A DNA stretch of 64,000 nt, taken from the sequence record NC_054919.1. One strand, given 5' to 3'. Made by a program: the position numbers and the translations under genes. Below are positions 97 to 20,298 of the stretch, piece after piece (position 1 is the first letter of the stretch; the number at the start of each line of letters is the position of its first letter). This DNA is from Escherichia phage vB_EcoM_G4507. The notes below the pieces were generated by a model. It had not been told where the DNA came from and made no database searches. It was given only the letters and a program-made list of their open reading frames with translations.

Positions 97-1380
97 ATGG
101 CTAAAATCAACGAACTTCTGCGCGAATCAACCACAACGAATAGCAACTCAATCGGTCGCCCAAATCTCGTTGCTTTGACTCGCGCTACCACTAAATTAAT
201 ATATTCTGACATTGTAGCAACGCAAAGAACTAATCAACCTGTTGCTGCTTTTTATGGTATCAAATACCTTAACCCGGATAACGAATTTACATTTAAAACT
301 GGTGCTACTTACGCCGGCGAAGCTGGATATGTAGACCGAGAACAAATCACAGAATTAACAGAAGAGTCTAAATTAACTCTCAATAAGGGCGATTTATTCA
401 AATATAATAATATCGTTTATAAAGTATTAGAAGATACACCATTTGCTGATATTGAAGAAAGCGATTTAGAATTAGCTCTTCAGATTGCAATTGTTCTTTT
501 AAAGGTTCGTCTATTTTCTGACGCAGCGTCAACAAGCAAATTTGAAAGCTCTGATAGTGAAATTGCGGATGCTAGATTCCAGATTAATAAATGGCAAACC
601 GCAGTTAAATCTCGTAAACTTAAAACTGGTATCACAGTTGAATTAGCACAAGATTTAGAAGCAAATGGATTCGATGCTCCTAATTTCTTGGAAGATTTGC
701 TTGCAACCGAAATGGCAGATGAAATCAATAAAGATATTCTGCAGTCTTTGATTACAGTGTCAAAACGCTATAAAGTTACAGGAATTACTGATACTGGATT
801 CATCGATTTGAGTTATGCATCTGCACCTGAAGCTGGTCGTTCATTATACCGAATGGTATGTGAAATGGTTTCACATATCCAGAAAGAATCAACTTATACA
901 GCAACGTTCTGTGTTGCTTCAGCTCGTGCCGCTGCGATTCTTGCTGCATCAGGTTGGTTAAAACATAAACCAGAAGATGACAAATATCTTTCACAAAATG
1001 CCTACGGGTTCTTAGCTAATGGTTTACCGCTTTATTGCGATACCAACAGCCCATTAGATTATGTAATCGTTGGCGTAGTAGAAAATATCGGTGAAAAAGA
1101 AATTGTTGGATCAATTTTCTATGCTCCGTATACAGAAGGTCTTGACTTAGATGACCCTGAACATGTAGGTGCATTTAAAGTTGTAGTTGATCCAGAAAGT
1201 TTGCAGCCATCTATCGGTTTATTAGTTAGATATGCTTTATCTGCAAATCCTTACACTGTAGCAAAAGATGAAAAAGAAGCAAGAGTAATTGATGGTGGAG
1301 ACATGGATAAAATGGCGGGTCGTTCAGATTTGTCTGTTTTATTAGGTGTTAAGCTACCAAAAATTATCATTGATGAATAA
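97..1380 (+). CDS. 24: Head vertex protein gp24
   Basis: 427 aa, same length as T4 gp24; N-terminus MAKINELLRES... recognised as major-capsid-fold vertex protein. Confidence 0.9.
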   Translation: MAKINELLRESTTTNSNSIGRPNLVALTRATTKLIYSDIVATQRTNQPVAAFYGIKYLNPDNEFTFKTGATYAGEAGYVDREQITELTEESKLTLNKGDLFKYNNIVYKVLEDTPFADIEESDLELALQIAIVLLKVRLFSDAASTSKFESSDSEIADARFQINKWQTAVKSRKLKTGITVELAQDLEANGFDAPNFLEDLLATEMADEINKDILQSLITVSKRYKVTGITDTGFIDLSYASAPEAGRSLYRMVCEMVSHIQKESTYTATFCVASARAAAILAASGWLKHKPEDDKYLSQNAYGFLANGLPLYCDTNSPLDYVIVGVVENIGEKEIVGSIFYAPYTEGLDLDDPEHVGAFKVVVDPESLQPSIGLLVRYALSANPYTVAKDEKEARVIDGGDMDKMAGRSDLSVLLGVKLPKIIIDE

Positions 1381-1386
1381 AACAAA

Positions 1387-1402
1387 GGGACCTTTCGGTC
1401 CC
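1387..1402. terminator. Bidirectional hairpin terminator (gggacc-tttc-ggtccc) between gene 24 and rnlB
   Basis: Perfect inverted repeat flanked by A-run and T-run. Confidence 0.6.
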
Positions 1403-1409
1403 TTTTTAT

Positions 1410-2414
1410 TTAACTTACCAATTCAATCCAAGCCGGACGAAGTACATCTTGTACCATTTTAACTAATTCCTTCTTAATCAAAGAAGGATTATCCGCTTGA
1501 GTTAGAGTAATACCTTCACGAGAAGTTTCTTCCAAAATATCTTGAACCGTTAGTCCCATCACCTTTCCAAAATCTTTTGGACCAATTTCACCAATTTTAG
1601 AAATAACGTTATTTACTCGGTTCAGTGTAACATAACAAGCTAAAATTCCCAGCAATTTATTATCAGCTTCTGACAACTCAACTTTAGCTTTAATAGGCTT
1701 ATCAGACTTTTTCTTTTCACTAAATTTAGAGTTCTTGCATTTGATGGCTACACGATTGCGATTAGGCAGCCAAGAAGGATAACAAGGTTTCAATACATAT
1801 CCTTCAGCGGTAAATACTTCGCCTTTTGCTTCAGCATTCCAAACGCATTTATTTGCATCAACTAATCCAGCATGGTCTACCGTAAAATTATAATCCTGTA
1901 CGACAGAATCTAAATCATTTGGCAATTTAATAAGTTCTTCAAATTTACCACGACCTAAAAGTGGAGCCATTTTAAATTTAAATGTATTACAGAATGATTC
2001 CATCATATAATCATCGACATAAATTACATCACCACTTTCTGTAGTAACAATAATGTCAAATACATAAAAATCTTTATCACCATAATCGACATTCTTCTGA
2101 ATGCCAGGTCCGGCGAATTCACCAAAGACTTGATAAGATACAACCGCTGAAGTTTCCATAATATCTTGTACTGCTTTAATGGAATCAGCGTAATTCTTCA
2201 AAATAATTTCATACCCAAAGAAATCTTCAGCAGGAAGAATAGGACCAGTTCGTTTAGCACAAGTTACTTTATCACGCTCAATAATCAATGAGAAATTTGT
2301 GCCGTGAATCTTTTCACGAGCTACCCATTCGCCGCCAGTCAATCCTAAACTGTAAAGTTTTTCAATAAATTTAGAGTTGTAATGATTTTCAAGACTGCTA
2401 TACTTTTTAAACAT
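1410..2414 (-). CDS. rnlB: RNA ligase 2 (Rnl2)
   Basis: 334 aa; [16 protein letters not shown]...KIHGTNFS contains the nucleotidyltransferase lysine motif; matches T4 Rnl2 length and N-terminus. Confidence 0.9.
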
Positions 2415-2904: not shown

Positions 2905-2973
2905 GTTATCGAGTTGATGCCATTATATACATCATTTTCTGAGTATGTTTTGTGTGCTTTCAAAATGAAGAAA

Positions 2974-2987
2974 GGGGCCGAAGCCCC
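2974..2987 (-). terminator. Hairpin terminator (ggggcc-ga-agcccc) region downstream/upstream of hoc
   Basis: GC-rich inverted repeat in the intergenic region. Confidence 0.45.
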
Positions 2988-2993
2988 TTATGA

Positions 2994-4412
2994 TTATGGA
3001 TAGGTATAGATGATACCAGTTTCTAAAGCAGTTTTATGAATGATGTATCCATTGCGTGATTCTTGAACATCAACTTCTGGATAGTCTTTCATCATCTTCT
3101 GAAGAGTGTAACGATGCAGGTAGTATTTACTATCTGGATCTTCAGTTTTCCAATCTTTACCTTCTTCGGTCATTTTTTGGATTTCATCCATAACCCACCA
3201 ACCGCACCAGATATAAGCTGAAGTGCGATGTGGAAGAGGATGAACATAAGGCAATTCACCTTCTGGTTCCGGAGCAACTTTATCAGTTACCTGAACTTGG
3301 CCTGTTGCTTTAACTGTTTTACTATCATAGTCGGTTGCTGTAACGGTTGCAGTAACTTCAATAGTTTGACTTCCAATAGATGATGTATCAACCGTGTATA
3401 CATTAGTTGATTCTTCTACAGGAGAAGAATCTTTCTTCCATGAATATTCGATTTGTGCTTCTTCTGGAGCATCCGTAACATTAGCAGTAAATGTAGCCGA
3501 AGCATCTTGCTGAACGTTAATAGAAGGAGGAGTCAATGTAACCTGTGGATTCATTGTCTTCTTATTAACTGTTAATGATACTTCATTAGAAGTAACTTCC
3601 TTTTCATTGTAATTTTCAGCCGTTACTTGGGCTACGCATTTAATTCTTTTTACTCCACTTGTAGTTGGAGTATAGTTAAATGTAGAGTTAGTTTCTCCAC
3701 CAATTTGAGAATCATCTACATACCATTTATATGTAGCAGACGCTCCATCAGGTTGAGAAACCAAGGCAGCAGTAAATTGAACTGGGGTTCCAATTACTCC
3801 AGCTGGAGGACTATCAGGAGTTACTGCCAAGGTAGTTGTCTGCGTCTTTTTATTAACAGTCAGTGACACTTCATTGGAAGTAACTTCCTTTGTATCATAA
3901 TCTGTCGCGGTTACTTGAGCTACGCACTTAATTGTTTTAACTCCGCTTGCGTCAGGAGTGTAATTGAATGTAGTGCTAGTTGCTTCGCCCACAGGAGAAC
4001 CGTCAACGTACCATTGATACGTAGCGTTTGCACCTGATGGCTGTGAAGCTAAGGCAGCGGTAAATTCAATTGGAGTTCCAATCACTCCAGCATCAGGGCT
4101 ACCAGGAGTTACTGCCAAAGTAGTTGTTTGTGTCTTATTTTGAACTGTGATAGTTGTACTAATTTCAGCTGTTTCAGGTTCAGATTCTGCAACTTGATTG
4201 GTTGCAACTACTTTAATAGTCTTTTGACCGGCAGGTCCTTTTAGTACATAACTAAAAGTTGCTGACGTTTCTTCCTGTGGAGCGTCGTCTACAGTCCAAG
4301 CATATGTAATAGGTCCATCTCCAGTTTGACCACTGGGTGTAGCAGTAAACTGCTGAGTCTGATCTATAACTCCAGTAGGTGTTTTAGGAGTTATATCAAC
4401 TGTAAAAGCCAT
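2994..4412 (-). CDS. hoc: Highly immunogenic outer capsid protein Hoc, with four Ig-like domains
   Basis: 472 aa; N-terminus MAFTVDITPKTPTGVIDQTQQFTATPSGQTG and C-terminal capsid-binding tail ...IWCGWWVMDEIQKMTEEGKDW match T4 Hoc; about 96 aa longer than T4 Hoc (376 aa). Confidence 0.85.
   Translation of the reverse strand: MAFTVDITPKTPTGVIDQTQQFTATPSGQTGDGPITYAWTVDDAPQEETSATFSYVLKGPAGQKTIKVVATNQVAESEPETAEISTTITVQNKTQTTTLAVTPGSPDAGVIGTPIEFTAALASQPSGANATYQWYVDGSPVGEATSTTFNYTPDASGVKTIKCVAQVTATDYDTKEVTSNEVSLTVNKKTQTTTLAVTPDSPPAGVIGTPVQFTAALVSQPDGASATYKWYVDDSQIGGETNSTFNYTPTTSGVKRIKCVAQVTAENYNEKEVTSNEVSLTVNKKTMNPQVTLTPPSINVQQDASATFTANVTDAPEEAQIEYSWKKDSSPVEESTNVYTVDTSSIGSQTIEVTATVTATDYDSKTVKATGQVQVTDKVAPEPEGELPYVHPLPHRTSAYIWCGWWVMDEIQKMTEEGKDWKTEDPDSKYYLHRYTLQKMMKDYPEVDVQESRNGYIIHKTALETGIIYTYP
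3561..4136 (-). repeat. Tandem duplication of a 288-nt Ig-like domain unit inside hoc (two diverged copies)
   Basis: Residues 93-188 and 189-284 are near-identical at protein level (KTQTTTLAVTP...EVSLTVNK twice); DNA copies diverged by synonymous changes. Confidence 0.7.
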
Positions 4413-4421
4413 AAGTTATCC

Positions 4422-5102
4422 TTATTTTAATGTTACGAAAGAAGAATTACGTGTTTCACGAATTAGAACTGATCCGTCACGATTAATGTAGTAAATTAAG
4501 CTAAATAAAGTTTGGTGTGCCGACGCATGTTCAAAACTAGTTGGGTGAGATTTCCAATCTGGGGTTTCAGCAATCCATTGATAAATCCACCAAGGAACAG
4601 TGCAGAATCCTGGATTTTTTCCAATCAGCTGAAGATTCGGACTAAAGTTTTCCGGAAGAGTAAATACAGACGGCTTTTCAGATTCAATAATCTCAGCTAC
4701 AGCCTGTTCGAATTTTTCTTCAACAAAAGGAGTATCTTCAATTAAAACAGTGGTATTTTCAGGAATTTTATCCGTTTCTACTACTTCAATTTTAATGTCA
4801 GATTTAACCGGAGAATCAATCAGAAGTGCTGCCTCTGGATTGACTTCTTCATCGTCATATTTTAATCCGTCTGCGGCATCAGCAGCATCAATTAAGTCTT
4901 TAATAGATAACCCATCAGTCTCTGGCATAGGTTCACTAGCGAGCTTCTGGAGAGCTTCTTCAATATCATTAACGATATTATCAAAAGATTTATTCTTTTT
5001 GACCTTTATACCAAACTGTTCAGCATATTCAGCTAATTTAGCTTTAGCTTCTTTATTATCATCAAGAGCCTTCAGCTCTGCAATATAATCTTTATCTATC
5101 AT
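4422..5102 (-). CDS. inh: Inhibitor of prohead protease gp21 (Inh)
   Basis: 226 aa, same length and position as T4 inh. Confidence 0.7.
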   Translation of the reverse strand: MIDKDYIAELKALDDNKEAKAKLAEYAEQFGIKVKKNKSFDNIVNDIEEALQKLASEPMPETDGLSIKDLIDAADAADGLKYDDEEVNPEAALLIDSPVKSDIKIEVVETDKIPENTTVLIEDTPFVEEKFEQAVAEIIESEKPSVFTLPENFSPNLQLIGKNPGFCTVPWWIYQWIAETPDWKSHPTSFEHASAHQTLFSLIYYINRDGSVLIRETRNSSFVTLK

Positions 5103-5115
5103 AATATTTCCTCAG

Positions 5116-5123
5116 TATAAATA
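5116..5123 (+). promoter_or_regulatory. Late-promoter-like TATAAATA upstream of segD
   Basis: Exact TATAAATA about 30 nt upstream of the segD ATG. Confidence 0.4.
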
Positions 5124-5151
5124 TAGATATATTTATTACTCGGAAAATAGT

Positions 5152-5769
5152 ATGTACCACTTTGTATATGAAACAACAAATCTAATAAATGGTAAAAAGT
5201 ATATAGGAAAACACTCTACTGATGACTTGAATGATGGTTACCTTGGTTCCGGTAAGGCAATTCAGCAGGCTATAAAGAAATATGGTGAAAACAATTTCTC
5301 TAGAACAATACTAAAAGAGTTTAAAACTTCCGAAGAAGCGTACATGTATGAAGAAGAAATTATAACTCCTGAAATAATAAAAAGCAAAAATTATTATAAT
5401 ATGAAACCTGGTGGAATTGGTGGAATTGTTATGACTACAGAGGTTATAGCAAAGATGAAAGAATCTTCCGCTAAGAGATTTGAAAACTCACCGGGCACGG
5501 TATTAGGTACAACTTGTTACACTAATGGAACTAAAAATATTTTTATTAAACCTGGAGAACTTGTTCCAGAAGGATTTGTAAAAGGAATGGTTCATCCTAA
5601 TAGAAAGTCCAGAAAAGGATGTAAAGTCAAACCGACTACCACAGGAACTTTTTGGGTCAATAACGGTGCAATAAATAAATTAATACAACCAGACGGTATT
5701 ATTCCCGACGGATTTATTAAAGGTCGTCTCATGAAAAGAGATTCTAAAGGCAAATTTAGTAAGGCATAA
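5152..5769 (+). CDS. segD: Free-standing GIY-YIG homing endonuclease SegD-like
   Basis: 205 aa; N-terminal HFVYETTNLINGKKYIGK is a GIY-YIG motif; sits between inh and uvsW as in T4. Confidence 0.75.
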   Translation: MYHFVYETTNLINGKKYIGKHSTDDLNDGYLGSGKAIQQAIKKYGENNFSRTILKEFKTSEEAYMYEEEIITPEIIKSKNYYNMKPGGIGGIVMTTEVIAKMKESSAKRFENSPGTVLGTTCYTNGTKNIFIKPGELVPEGFVKGMVHPNRKSRKGCKVKPTTTGTFWVNNGAINKLIQPDGIIPDGFIKGRLMKRDSKGKFSKA

Positions 5770-5771
5770 TT

Positions 5772-7280
5772 ATGGATATTAAAGTACATTTTCACGACTT
5801 CAGCCATGTACGCATCGATTGTGAAGAGAGCACGTTCCACGAATTAAGAGATTTCTTTTCGTTTGAGGCCGATGGATATAGATTTAATCCTCGCTTCAGA
5901 TATGGCAACTGGGATGGACGAATCCGTCTTTTAGATTATAATCGTCTTCTTCCATTTGGCTTAGTCGGGCAAATTAAAAAGTTCTGTGATAACTTTGGCT
6001 ATAAAGCCTGGATTGACCCACAAATTAACGAAAAAGAAGAATTATCAAGAAAAGATTTTGATGAATGGCTTTCTAAATTAGAAATCTATTCAGGAAATAA
6101 AAGAATTGAACCGCATTGGTATCAAAAAGATGCAGTGTTCGAAGGATTAGTTAATCGTCGTAGAATTCTTAATCTTCCAACATCCGCTGGTAAATCTTTA
6201 ATTCAAGCTTTGCTTGCGCGATATTATTTGGAAAATTATGAAGGCAAAATTCTTATCATTGTTCCAACAACTGCTCTGACAACTCAGATGGCTGATGACT
6301 TTGTTGACTATCGTTTATTCAGTCATGCAATGATAAAGAAAATCGGCGGTGGAGCATCAAAAGATGATAAATATAAAAATGATGCACCGGTCGTTGTTGG
6401 TACATGGCAAACTGTAGTTAAACAACCAAAAGAATGGTTCTCACAGTTTGGAATGATGATGAATGATGAATGCCATCTTGCTACAGGAAAAAGTATTTCA
6501 TCTATCATATCAGGTTTAAATAACTGTATGTTCAAATTTGGTCTATCTGGTTCATTACGTGATGGCAAAGCCAATATCATGCAGTATGTTGGAATGTTTG
6601 GTGAAATATTTAAGCCAGTAACGACTTCTAAGTTAATGGAAGATGGACAAGTAACTGAGCTAAAAATTAATAGTATTTTTCTTCGCTATCCCGATGAGTT
6701 CACTACTAAATTAAAGGGAAAAACTTATCAAGAAGAAATAAAAATTATTACGGGGCTTAGTAAAAGAAATAAATGGATCGCTAAATTGGCTATTAAGCTT
6801 GCACAAAAAGATGAAAACGCTTTTGTCATGTTTAAACATGTATCACATGGTAAAGCTATTTTCGATTTAATTAAAAATGAATACGATAAAGTTTATTACG
6901 TATCAGGGGAAGTTGATACCGAAACCCGCAATATAATGAAAACCTTAGCTGAAAATGGTAAAGGAATAATTATAGTAGCTAGTTATGGTGTATTTTCTAC
7001 TGGTATTTCAGTTAAAAATCTGCATCACGTTGTTTTAGCGCACGGTGTTAAATCAAAAATCATTGTATTACAAACAATCGGTCGTGTATTACGTAAGCAT
7101 GGTTCTAAAACAATCGCAACAGTCTGGGACCTCATAGATGACTGTGGTGTCAAGCCAAAATCTGCTAATACTAAAAAGAAATATGTTCACTTGAACTATC
7201 TTTTAAAACACGGCATTGATCGTATTCAGCGCTACGCAGATGAAAAATTTAATTACGTAATGAAAACAGTTAATTTATAA
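5772..7280 (+). CDS. uvsW: UvsW DNA/RNA helicase (SF2, recombination and origin unwinding)
   Basis: 502 aa, same length as T4 UvsW; Walker A-like LNLPTSAGKS and DECH box (MMMNDECHLATGK). Confidence 0.9.
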   Translation: MDIKVHFHDFSHVRIDCEESTFHELRDFFSFEADGYRFNPRFRYGNWDGRIRLLDYNRLLPFGLVGQIKKFCDNFGYKAWIDPQINEKEELSRKDFDEWLSKLEIYSGNKRIEPHWYQKDAVFEGLVNRRRILNLPTSAGKSLIQALLARYYLENYEGKILIIVPTTALTTQMADDFVDYRLFSHAMIKKIGGGASKDDKYKNDAPVVVGTWQTVVKQPKEWFSQFGMMMNDECHLATGKSISSIISGLNNCMFKFGLSGSLRDGKANIMQYVGMFGEIFKPVTTSKLMEDGQVTELKINSIFLRYPDEFTTKLKGKTYQEEIKIITGLSKRNKWIAKLAIKLAQKDENAFVMFKHVSHGKAIFDLIKNEYDKVYYVSGEVDTETRNIMKTLAENGKGIIIVASYGVFSTGISVKNLHHVVLAHGVKSKIIVLQTIGRVLRKHGSKTIATVWDLIDDCGVKPKSANTKKKYVHLNYLLKHGIDRIQRYADEKFNYVMKTVNL

Positions 7281-7292
7281 GGGCTTCGGCCC
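7281..7292. terminator. Short hairpin gggc-ttcg-gccc after uvsW
   Basis: Inverted repeat with UUCG loop. Confidence 0.4.
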
Positions 7293-7305
7293 TTTGGAGA
7301 AAAAG

Positions 7306-18246: not shown

Positions 18247-20298
18247 TTATCCTTGAACGAACTTGTAAGGCATGTTTGTAATATCTATGCAAGACGCAAT
18301 AATTCCAAGAGATGATTCTACTTTCTGTTTAACATTTGATGAAACAAATGATGCAAAGTCAACTCTATCTTCTATATCACCTGTCATTGTAACTACTTCG
18401 CCGGTTTCCATTAAACGGTCACCGTCATAAATTACTGATTCGGTGAGTTCTTCGGTGGTCATAACTTCAGCTTGAATAAGCTTGTTGTTAGTTTTGACTG
18501 TTCCATCATTGTAAGATGCATCAGTTATTTTATTAACTTTGACCATTAATCCACGTGGCAAAATGACTTCCATTTCATTTGAAGGCGCTAAACTTCCACC
18601 GGGTAAAACAACATTGACTTTATCAGCCCCAGTAATAACCCATCCAATTCCGACTAAATTATCGCTAGAATTAACAAGCCCTTCATCATTTTTATCGATA
18701 GAAATGTTTAGACGCTTTTCATCTGGTAAAACACCAACAGCTGAATCAGTCATCCAAGTACCAAAAATGTTTGGATATAATGATGTTGATACAAAATTTC
18801 TAAAATAAAAAACTCGATTTTTTACCATTGCTTCGTATATTGAAGGTAACATTCGTTGTGAACGATACAAAGTAATACCTTTTGGTAATCGTTCACCATT
18901 TTTAAAGGCTGAATCTAAATTATCAATAGCTTTTTCTATGTCAGATGCTGTCAAAATACTTGTACGCTCATCTGGATTATATAATCCCAAAAGAGCATTA
19001 TTTATGTCTACATATCCTGAACCTACGTATTCACGAATTCCGCGTTTTTGTGCTGGTGTGTATTTAGATGAATCTTTATTTTCGACTATAGGATGTAATG
19101 ACCATCCAGCTGTAAGAGCATATCCACGTAATTCTCTTCGAATAATCTTTGTTTTTATTGCATTCCAAGAATTTTGTACTAACTCATTTGCAGCATCTTG
19201 GTTTAAATGCGAATGTTTGTTAATATTTCTTTCAAACCAAGCACCTTTATATTTTTCTAAAGTATTATCGACGATAGAAGCAATAGTTTCTAAAGTTTTT
19301 ATTGAAGTAATAGATTCTTTTCGTAATTTTTCTAAAGCTTTATTTTTTATTTCTGCATTAATAATGGATTCTTTATCTTCAGGAATTATAGAAGCTTCTC
19401 TGAATGCCATCCCAGCTGTAACACTGCTAAGAGCATTCTCTAGTGCAAATCCTGAAGTAGAAATTACCGTTAATTCATTAGAATCAGAAATTAAAGGCGC
19501 ATCAGCGGGTTTATTTAATTCTGCTGCTGAAGCCTCAAATTTTTGAAACATCGGTGTTTCAAATCTAGAAGATTCCAATGACTGACTTTGTGCAATTGCT
19601 CTACGGGAAATTTTAACTTTAACGATTACAGCTTGGTCAGAACGTTTATCATTTTCTTGTGCAATAGATGCTGCAATTGCCTCATTTTTGGTTACTTGAG
19701 CTCCGGTATCTTTATTGATATAAACATCACCGACCTTCGATTCAACTTTAGTAAAGAGCTCGGTACTAATTTCCGGAACTCCTGGAATGTCTTCTAGTGA
19801 TACATTTTTGCGATGTATAAGAATATATGCATACTTTTTATCATAATCCCAGAGTTCCTTAAGAAGGACGTATCTGCCACCTGAACGACTACGGATAAGT
19901 CTATCAGCAATAACTTGAATTTGTCGAGCTTGACCAGCGGTTTTAGACTTAAGAATACGAAGCATACAGGCATCAATTTTATACTGACGCATTGTTTGCA
20001 TCGCAACAGTAAAAACTGAATTGATATAATTAATTGGGCTTGGACCAAGACCTTTTAATTTAGCAATTGAACCTTTAGCAGTTAATGTAAAAGGAACAAT
20101 ATGCATCATTTTATCGCCCATCTTTAAATCGCGATTAGTATCACCTCCAGATGTATAGGTACATAAACGAAAGCCTGGTTGTTCAATTGCATCATCAACA
20201 TGAACTGAAAAAATTTGCGGTATTTTCTTCTTTGGATTTAAGTTTGTAATCGGAAGAGTAGTATCTTCGTCAAATAATTCTGTAATAAGTTCCATCAT
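18247..20298 (-). CDS. alt: Alt, RNA polymerase ADP-ribosyltransferase (packaged and injected)
   Basis: 683 aa (T4 Alt 682 aa); R-S-ExE motifs LYRSQ, FVSTSL, EMEVILPRG; immediately upstream of DNA ligase as in T4. Confidence 0.85.
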   Translation of the reverse strand: MMELITELFDEDTTLPITNLNPKKKIPQIFSVHVDDAIEQPGFRLCTYTSGGDTNRDLKMGDKMMHIVPFTLTAKGSIAKLKGLGPSPINYINSVFTVAMQTMRQYKIDACMLRILKSKTAGQARQIQVIADRLIRSRSGGRYVLLKELWDYDKKYAYILIHRKNVSLEDIPGVPEISTELFTKVESKVGDVYINKDTGAQVTKNEAIAASIAQENDKRSDQAVIVKVKISRRAIAQSQSLESSRFETPMFQKFEASAAELNKPADAPLISDSNELTVISTSGFALENALSSVTAGMAFREASIIPEDKESIINAEIKNKALEKLRKESITSIKTLETIASIVDNTLEKYKGAWFERNINKHSHLNQDAANELVQNSWNAIKTKIIRRELRGYALTAGWSLHPIVENKDSSKYTPAQKRGIREYVGSGYVDINNALLGLYNPDERTSILTASDIEKAIDNLDSAFKNGERLPKGITLYRSQRMLPSIYEAMVKNRVFYFRNFVSTSLYPNIFGTWMTDSAVGVLPDEKRLNISIDKNDEGLVNSSDNLVGIGWVITGADKVNVVLPGGSLAPSNEMEVILPRGLMVKVNKITDASYNDGTVKTNNKLIQAEVMTTEELTESVIYDGDRLMETGEVVTMTGDIEDRVDFASFVSSNVKQKVESSLGIIASCIDITNMPYKFVQG

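Follow-up and report, generated by a model that had tools for sequence, protein, structure and literature searches.

The window, a stretch of 64,000 nucleotides from Escherichia phage vB_EcoM_G4507 (NC_054919.1), contains on its minus strand an ORF (positions 2994-4412) which, in agreement with an initial annotation of this DNA, encodes a protein of 472 aa followed by a stop codon. Its upstream neighbour with respect to transcription is inh (4422-5102, minus strand), and downstream of it lie homologs of 24.3 and 24.2 and the gene for RNA ligase 2 (rnlB); the order inh / hoc / 24.3/24.2/rnlB is the same in the annotations of the window, T4 and G4500. A phmmer search of the PDB matched the predicted protein to the T4 Hoc chain 5vf3_Z (E=5e-221). 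On the basis of this match, the shared gene position and the 98% aa identity of the C-terminal 92 residues (aa 381-472) to T4 Hoc, the 472-aa product is Hoc. The gene is followed by a terminator-like hairpin (Table 1), and a terminator is annotated at the matching site in G4500 and G29.

Domain organization of the predicted Hoc protein

The hoc gene of T4 (NC_000866, positions 110187-111317; 1131 bp) encodes 376 aa, which is the length given in the initial annotation; the reservation attached there, that T4 Hoc might in reality be of about 472 aa, therefore does not apply. Alignment of the two proteins revealed a single clean gap of 96 aa in T4, the remaining parts being collinear, and one in-frame unit of this size explains the difference between 472 and 376 aa. 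The coordinates of the domains and of the other features of the locus are presented in Table 1.

Table 1. Features of the hoc locus of the analysed window (AF2, AlphaFold2; TRF, Tandem Repeats Finder)
Feature	Coordinates	Strand	Basis
hoc coding sequence	2994..4412	-	ORF list; PDB match; deposited copy in MK327945
Domain 1 (D1), Ig-like, aa 1-92	4137..4412	-	AF2 beta-sandwich 1-91, pLDDT 84-93
Domain-2 unit 1 (U1 = D2a, 'A' type), aa 93-188	3849..4136	-	TRF, self-alignment; AF2
NEVSLT motif in U1, N180-T185	3858..3875	-	sequence; PNJ-9 residue numbers from PMC11853027
Domain-2 unit 2 (U2 = D2b, 'B' type), aa 189-284	3561..3848	-	alignment to T4 D2
Second NEVSLT copy, in U2, aa 276-281	3570..3587	-	sequence; PMC11853027
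Domain 3 (D3), Ig-like, aa 285-380	3273..3560	-	Pfam Ig_3 / I-set at 289-374; AF2 beta-sandwich 285-376
12-bp micro-repeat, 2.1 copies, encoding VTATVTAT in D3	3332..3356	-	TRF, protein sequences
Linker and C-terminal capsid-binding domain, aa 381-472	2997..3272	-	T4 alignment; AF2 alpha/beta fold
Intrinsic-terminator-like hairpin and T-run	2972..2989	-	5 nt past the hoc stop codon

An AlphaFold2 model of the protein (33 homologs in the alignment; mean pLDDT 84) predicts four beta-sandwich domains, at residues 1-91, 93-187, 189-283 and 285-376, mostly with pLDDT values above 90. The predicted strands of U1 span residues 98-187 (pLDDT above 90). The fourth sandwich is followed by a linker of low confidence (382-403) and then by a small alpha/beta C-terminal domain, the counterpart of T4 Hoc residues ~281-376, for which a capsid-binding role in Hoc has been described (PMC10385173). 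In a Foldseek search of the PDB the top matches were fragments composed of four Ig domains (Dscam, ICAM-5 D1-D4, Sidekick); RB49 Hoc was absent from the best 50 matches, differences in inter-domain geometry kept the TM-scores low, and the result is used here solely to confirm the string of four Ig domains. The number of Pfam PKD matches follows the same pattern: two in the window Hoc, one in T4 Hoc and three in a relative of 568 aa. The model thus agrees with the extra Ig-like domain proposed in the initial annotation, and the window Hoc is predicted to have one such domain more than T4, i.e. four (D1, D2a, D2b and D3, followed by the C-terminus) versus three. Outside the conserved C-terminus the window and T4 proteins share 78% aa identity in D1 and 86% in D3. 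One copy of the micro-repeat located in D3 is absent from two relatives (P0009, 468 aa; P0119, 372 aa).

Divergence and distribution of the domain-2 units

The repeat was detected by TRF as 2.0 copies of a 288-bp period (3556-4136, 77% matches), and the unit limits proposed in the initial annotation (aa 93-188 and 189-284) proved to be exact. The description of these units as near-identical was not upheld, since only 74 of 96 aa (77%; 22 differences) and 219 of 288 nt (76%; 69 differences) match, and no in-register stretch of identity exceeds 16 nt. The statement that the DNA copies differ mostly at synonymous positions is roughly right: of the 96 codons, 40 are the same in both units, 34 show synonymous changes only and 22 encode a different amino acid, and the nucleotide differences at codon positions 1, 2 and 3 number 15, 14 and 40, respectively. 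The similarity is nevertheless well above the background between Ig domains of this protein (23-37 identities per ~90 residues in D1/D2/D3 pairs), and a shift of Hoc against itself by 96 residues gives 103 self-matches, versus 52 or fewer for other shifts. The loops, i.e. the residues outside the predicted strands, make up 44% of the unit (strands, 56%) and hold 14 of the 22 aa differences. Comparison with the single D2 of T4 showed that U2 is the nearer copy (84/96 aa and 256/288 nt identical), whereas U1 matches it at 77 of 96 aa and 224 of 288 nt. The additional domain is a tandem paralog of domain 2.

Nei-Gojobori estimates for the U1-U2 pair are dS of ~1.0 and dN of 0.15 (dN/dS 0.15). For the orthologous segments of the window and T4 genes dS is 0.27-0.45, so that the synonymous divergence of the two units is about three times that of the two alleles, which indicates that the duplication is old. 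When each unit is compared with T4 D2, dS is 0.27 for U2, similar to the flanking segments, but 0.89 for U1; the two units therefore separated before the window and T4 alleles diverged. In comparisons of orthologous units (U1-U1, U2-U2) dN/dS is 0.19. Taken together, these substitution rates point to an old duplication, both copies of which are under purifying selection. No recent duplication is visible among the relatives, since in 37 of 37 representatives of multi-unit clusters the neighbouring units are identical at only 54-82 of 96 residues.

The hoc sequence of the window is identical to those of phage vB_EcoM_G4500 (MK327945) and of the IMG/VR contig IMGVR_UViG_3300010279_000005; that of G29 differs only by a 55-bp tandem duplication, which splits the gene. 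A Megablast search returned 677 phage records, from which we took a systematic, evenly spaced sample of 60. Fifty-four of these were full-length Tequatrovirus-type genes, comprising ~17 with two units (1419-bp span or equivalent), ~35 with one unit (1131 bp) and 1 apparently with three. Judged from this sample of 60 rows, ~30% of Tequatrovirus records have the two-unit form, and these come from many hosts and countries; two-unit genes 93-96% identical to that of the window have been sequenced independently in dozens of isolates. In a protein search Hoc fell into length classes of 376, 472 and 568 aa, i.e. 376 + 96n, corresponding to 1, 2 or 3 units, and some of the two-unit protein clusters hold 58-167 member sequences. 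Two scans of IMG/VR for hoc DNA yielded 4-5 Tequatrovirus loci.

Three unit archetypes may be distinguished by their motifs: (i) A, with GSPDAG ... DGSPVGEAT, (ii) B, with DSPPAG ... DDSQVGGETN, and (iii) C, with ANPAAG ... DGSLVDGETTT. Only three aa positions are strictly diagnostic of unit type, because the units are mosaic. The arrays found were A-B (as in the window), A-C, A/B-C and A-B-C, and one-unit genes carry units of the U1 type, of the U2 type or mixed ones. Among the one-unit genes, the D2 of L007 is nearest to U1 (252/288 nt), and those of L005 (262/288 nt) and T4 (256/288 nt) are nearest to U2. A single unequal crossover between window-type genes was also considered, of which the three-unit genes would be the reciprocal product; this was not supported, as their third unit is of the distinct C type and is not a U2/U1 chimera. 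The two-unit Hoc is a common, old and already sequenced length variant, and not a notable event in the window phage.

Loss of units and origin of the array

The direction of change was read from one-unit genes, which were fitted as parent-specific chimeras in the forward orientation (5' part from U1, 3' part from U2), with the reverse orientation as the control. One such gene is that of phage 107 (OQ599309), whose D1 (276/276 nt) and D3 with the C-terminus (567/567 nt) are identical to those of the window, as are 700/700 nt upstream and 1499/1500 nt downstream of the gene. The first 13 informative sites of its single unit correspond to U1 and the other 56 to U2, with a crossover at unit nt 78-87 and no mismatches in the forward fit, versus 13 in the best reverse one. 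Alleles of different unit number thus occur in near-identical backgrounds. Another one-unit gene, from a metagenomic phage for which ENA and Logan provide independent assemblies (L031, L032), matches the window exactly or nearly exactly outside the repeat, and has its crossover at unit nt 219-228 (0 mismatches forward, 15 reverse). In vB_Eco_Geo, compared with a two-unit gene of the P0015 type, the flanks are identical and the crossover lies in the middle of the unit (9 mismatches forward, 24 reverse). A unit composed of U1 and then U2 sequence in an otherwise identical gene cannot be ancestral to two units differing at 69 sites; it results from an in-register deletion of 288 bp. The identical tracts at the crossovers are of 8-11 nt, which fits short-homology deletion, a process known for T4.

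The same tendency was seen among proteins, where a gain of 3 aa or more was required to call a chimera. Among 22 one-unit proteins whose flanks differ by at most 3 aa from those of a two-unit protein, 10 were forward chimeras and none was reverse; the crossovers of the forward chimeras fall into six or more intervals, and several parents are involved. When all 79 one-unit proteins were considered there were 15 forward and 6 reverse chimeras, and the latter, together with the mosaic units, indicate that gene conversion or allelic exchange also acts. The source of many one-unit chimeras is short-read metagenome data assembled in Logan or ENA, where repeats could in principle be mis-joined, but the longest identical run shared by the units is below the usual k-mer sizes and two of the three cases resolved at the DNA level are deposited complete phage genomes. 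The D2 of T4 is mostly of the U2 type with a U1-like patch; a close two-unit parent for it was absent from our set (19 flank mismatches; chimera gains of 1 forward and 2 reverse). Wherever the direction can be read, the gene comparisons indicate that deletion turned two-unit genes into one-unit genes, and not the converse. The initial annotation had implied a notable, datable duplication specific to one lineage; with a dS of ~1.0, a common two-unit form and readable changes that are losses, this picture could not be maintained.

It is highly probable that the window gene encodes a four-Ig Hoc with old D2 paralogs, belonging to a Tequatrovirus array of one to three units that is eroded by in-register deletion. 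In this model D2a and D2b are old tandem paralogs of T4 domain 2 retained under purifying selection, and the expansion of the array of 96-aa units, of which Tequatrovirus phages have 1, 2 or 3, is ancient. A deletion of 288 bp arises when units that are 76% identical recombine in register, or when the template is switched between them, and leaves a 376-aa, one-unit Hoc whose single D2 is a 5'-U1/3'-U2 chimera. By its C-terminal domain a single Hoc would be anchored in the middle of every gp23 hexamer.

Other origins of the second unit have to be weighed against this model. The adjacent position, common reading frame and equal length of the units, and the presence of one unit fewer in T4, are also what a recent duplication in the lineage of the window phage, starting from a T4-like three-Ig Hoc, would produce. 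Such an event is extremely improbable, and is refuted by the divergence of the units (69 of 288 nt; dS ~1.0), by the contrast between U1 and U2 in their distance from T4 D2, and by a distribution that extends to nearly one third of the Tequatrovirus records; near-identical units were found in none of the multi-unit Hoc proteins of the sample. Repeats are a classic source of assembly errors, and the near-identical G29 gene is itself split by a short duplication, yet the chance that the extra unit of the window is an artefact of assembly or annotation is practically negligible. The ORF is intact, the same gene is present in G4500 and in the IMG/VR contig, with closely similar genes (93-96%) in dozens of isolates, and copies that are only 76% identical cannot result from double-counting of one unit by an assembler; these observations refute the artefact. 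An unlikely, though less remote, origin is a fusion in which A and B existed as one-unit alleles and were joined later by unequal recombination between two different phages during mixed infection; the array would then be heteroallelic and no true internal duplication. One-unit genes of both types (U1 in L007; U2 in T4 and L005) do occur in diverse backgrounds, recombination between T4-type phages is unrestricted when the multiplicity of infection is high (PMC9271167), and in some pairs D1 has a dS of 0 while the units show values of 0.39-0.54. A fusion of this kind needs a non-homologous junction, however, and only ~9 nt of microhomology are present at the D1/D2 and D2/D3 boundaries. Furthermore, every standard-length multi-unit protein shares the unit start and end motifs and the unit order is nearly always the same, which argues for one or a few origins, and 'pure A' or 'pure B' genes with flanks identical to those of the window are equally well explained by a collapse near the unit end.

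Possible function and comparison with known systems

The Hoc protein of T4 forms a fibre of 180 Å composed of four domains (PMC10385173). By proportion, a fifth domain should add about 45 Å, so the window fibre would be longer than that of T4 by this length and would show a second D2 surface with diverged loops. Given the conserved capsid anchor, each gp23 hexamer should bear one fibre, with a single window Hoc probably located at the gp23* hexamer centre of the mature capsid, as in the T4 structure (PMC10385173). The suggestion of the initial annotation that domain number may change adherence or display geometry is reasonable, and such an effect has already been proposed in general terms (PMC10385173, PMC11150434).

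Both units of the window Hoc contain the motif NEVSLT. In U1 it occupies the same positions, with the same residues (180-185), as the MUC2/fucose-binding site in domain 2 of PNJ-9 Hoc (Fu et al., PMC11853027), a protein without D3 which binds MUC2 fucose via D2 residues S183, L184 and T185 (PMC11853027). In the one-unit Hoc of PNJ-6 (87.8% identical to T4) it was D1 that bound MUC2, and D2 did not (PMC11150434); the view that two putative NEVSLT sites may give a higher valency for mucin is therefore put forward only as a hypothesis.

It is possible, if somewhat doubtful, that variation in unit number is an effectively neutral polymorphism in the length of a decoration protein which can be dispensed with, and leaves adherence unaffected. 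In the laboratory Hoc is not essential (PMC10385173), genomes that are otherwise near-identical carry either the one- or the two-unit form, losses are frequent, and the PNJ-6 result for D2 is in line with such a view. Against it, each retained unit is under purifying selection (dN/dS 0.15-0.19), the loops hold most of the inter-unit differences, and the D2 motif used by PNJ-9 is present twice in the window Hoc (PMC11853027). The arrays have also lasted to a dS of ~1 despite active deletion, which suggests that they are kept by selection in some of the phages. Purifying selection and this persistence together argue that the extra unit is useful in at least part of the population. A broader version of the preferred model is more tentative. 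In it the D2 region would be an ancient array of cassettes (A, B and C), eroded by short-homology deletion and reshuffled between phages; the three-Ig Hoc of T4 would itself have collapsed, and the number and type of units would tune the length, valency or antigenicity of the fibre according to the gut niche. Should this broader version be true, phage 107 and a window-type phage would provide a natural isogenic series for tests of mucus adherence.

T4 nanoparticle vaccines use Hoc as their main display scaffold, and the idea of 'bacteriophage adherence to mucus' has Hoc as its model adhesin. Natural Hoc proteins of T4-group phages with three, four and five Ig domains, differing only in their tandem D2 units, may serve as variants for tests of how adherence, aggregation and immunogenicity depend on fibre length and valency, and four- and three-Ig forms in near-identical genomes constitute a natural near-isogenic pair at the hoc locus. 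Multi-unit hoc genes, whether engineered or natural, may shed units during propagation. GenBank records label the two-unit Hoc as 'PKD domain protein', 'capsid and scaffold protein' or 'Hoc-like head decoration', and the extra domain is unmentioned in the deposited two-unit annotations that we examined; the 472- and 568-aa 'PKD domain protein' entries at the hoc locus should be named Hoc.

Variation in domain number among Hoc homologs has been described before: they combine a conserved C-terminal anchor with 1 to 10 Ig-like domains, and the protein of Serratia phage Muldoon reaches 1174 aa (Fokine et al. 2023, PMC10385173). The published accounts (PMC10385173, PMC11853027) cover distant homologs or a deletion variant, unlike the D2 array within one genus considered here. 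In the literature searched, we found no description of a within-genus array of 1, 2 or 3 D2 units or of its collapse by unequal crossover. The discovery is a minor one, since the sequences can be found in public records and the varying number of Hoc domains has already been published.

The closest known systems are other Tequatrovirus Hoc proteins. T4 Hoc (NP_049793; PDB 5vf3 chain Z, 8t1x) has the same gene position and the same plan of a string of Ig domains plus an anchor; the window protein differs from it by one additional 96-aa domain of the D2 type, and of the two window units U2 is the main counterpart of T4 D2. The two-unit form is shared with G4500, whose gene is identical, and the same 1419-bp gene and unit order are found in G9062, G10400, ime09, Yersinia PYps14T, several BASEL phages and others (93-96% DNA identity to the window), none of which differs from the window gene in anything substantial. 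The three-unit Hoc (568 aa) of, for example, Escherichia phages UGKSEcP1 and UGKSEcP2 resembles that of the window in D1, D3, the C-terminus and the in-phase 96-aa unit, but has an added C unit, giving an A-B-C array and five Ig-like domains. A parallel case is the Hoc of the Klebsiella T4-like phage Marfa (471 aa), with adjacent units of ~94 aa that are 80% identical, in relatives of which the hoc genes are 282 nt shorter.

Among bacteria, the streptococcal alpha C/Rib proteins and staphylococcal protein A are tandem-repeat surface proteins whose length changes by unequal recombination. Like these, the window Hoc carries in-frame units on a surface-exposed immunogenic fibre, with copy-number variants produced by inter-unit recombination; unlike them, its units are old and 24% diverged, are present in 1-3 copies, and recombine at identical tracts of only 8-11 nt.

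Diversity and length variation within hoc

The array of tandem D2 units is a local hot spot, within hoc, of diversity and mosaicism. Between the hoc of the window and that of L034 (ENA k141_135030), a relative's locus that also encodes two units, synonymous divergence (dS) is 0.39-0.54 in the units, 0 in D1 and 0.17 in D3 plus the C-terminus.

In some Tequatrovirus-type Hoc proteins, among them P0052 (567 aa) and P0046 (472 aa), D1, the A unit and the C-terminus are normal, and one or two D2-type units are highly divergent. These units are approximately 55% identical to those of the window and carry motifs such as PVEIGTATTFTANVSNQP; the D3 of P0052 is divergent too. This composition suggests that the divergent units are cassettes brought in from another lineage.

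Besides the D2 units, hoc contains a second, smaller in-frame length polymorphism, a tandem micro-repeat in D3 (see the table). One copy of this repeat is missing in the Hoc proteins P0009 (468 aa, 99% identical) and P0119 (372 aa), which read TATDYD, as against TATVTATDYD in the Hoc of the window.

Coordinates of hoc-associated features in the window and in related phages
Feature	Location	Strand	Remarks
GIY-YIG homing-endonuclease ORF, segE-like	window 5152-5769	+	205 aa
12-bp tandem micro-repeat	window 3332-3356	-	D3, aa 353-360; encodes VTATVTAT
RB69 match, capsid-binding domain	window 2994-3269; NC_004928 112612-112884		megablast
hoc of phage vB_EcoM_G29, with 55-bp duplication	locus L002 (MK327940) 3001-4474; window equivalent of the duplication about 4004-4058		
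hoc of Klebsiella phage Marfa	locus L009 (MN044033) 601-2007		

Anomalous hoc records

The hoc of phage G29 differs from that of the window solely by a direct tandem duplication of 55 bp within U1, placed after nt 409 of the gene. The duplication shifts the reading frame and breaks the gene into two ORFs, both annotated as "PKD domain protein". Either G29 is a natural hoc-null variant, or its record contains an error of sequencing or assembly.

One nucleotide match (H43), MG010123.1 (32,172 bp), is labelled as a Staphylococcus aureus phage ("Staphylococcus phage SAJK-IND"). It contains, at positions 18685-20103, a two-unit Tequatrovirus hoc with 94.4% identity to that of the window. Either mislabelling or contamination of the database record is the probable explanation.

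Comparison with T4, Klebsiella phages and RB69

The segE-like ORF of the window is located between inh and uvsW, as is a homing-endonuclease ORF in T4. It is absent from G4500, G29 and phage 107, where the inh-uvsW gap is approximately 50 bp, despite a hoc that is identical to, or derived from, that of the window. Window region 4400-7300 is covered to 80% or more in only 156 of 812 phage records. The ORF looks like a presence/absence polymorphism of a mobile element directly adjoining hoc.

In a separate T4-like lineage (loci L008, L009, L010 and L014), whose Hoc is approximately 50% identical to that of the window, the protein forms a length series of 282, 377 and 471-472 aa. The Hoc of Marfa contains neighbouring units of approximately 94 aa, 80% identical to each other, and hoc is 282 nt shorter in relatives of this phage, which points to tandem-domain gain and loss parallel to, and independent of, that in the lineage of the window.

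In RB69, a phage of a different genus, the match to the hoc of the window is confined to the last 273 nt (96.7% identity), and megablast gave no match to RB69 for the Ig-domain part. The anchor module of Hoc appears to have been exchanged or conserved apart from the Ig string.
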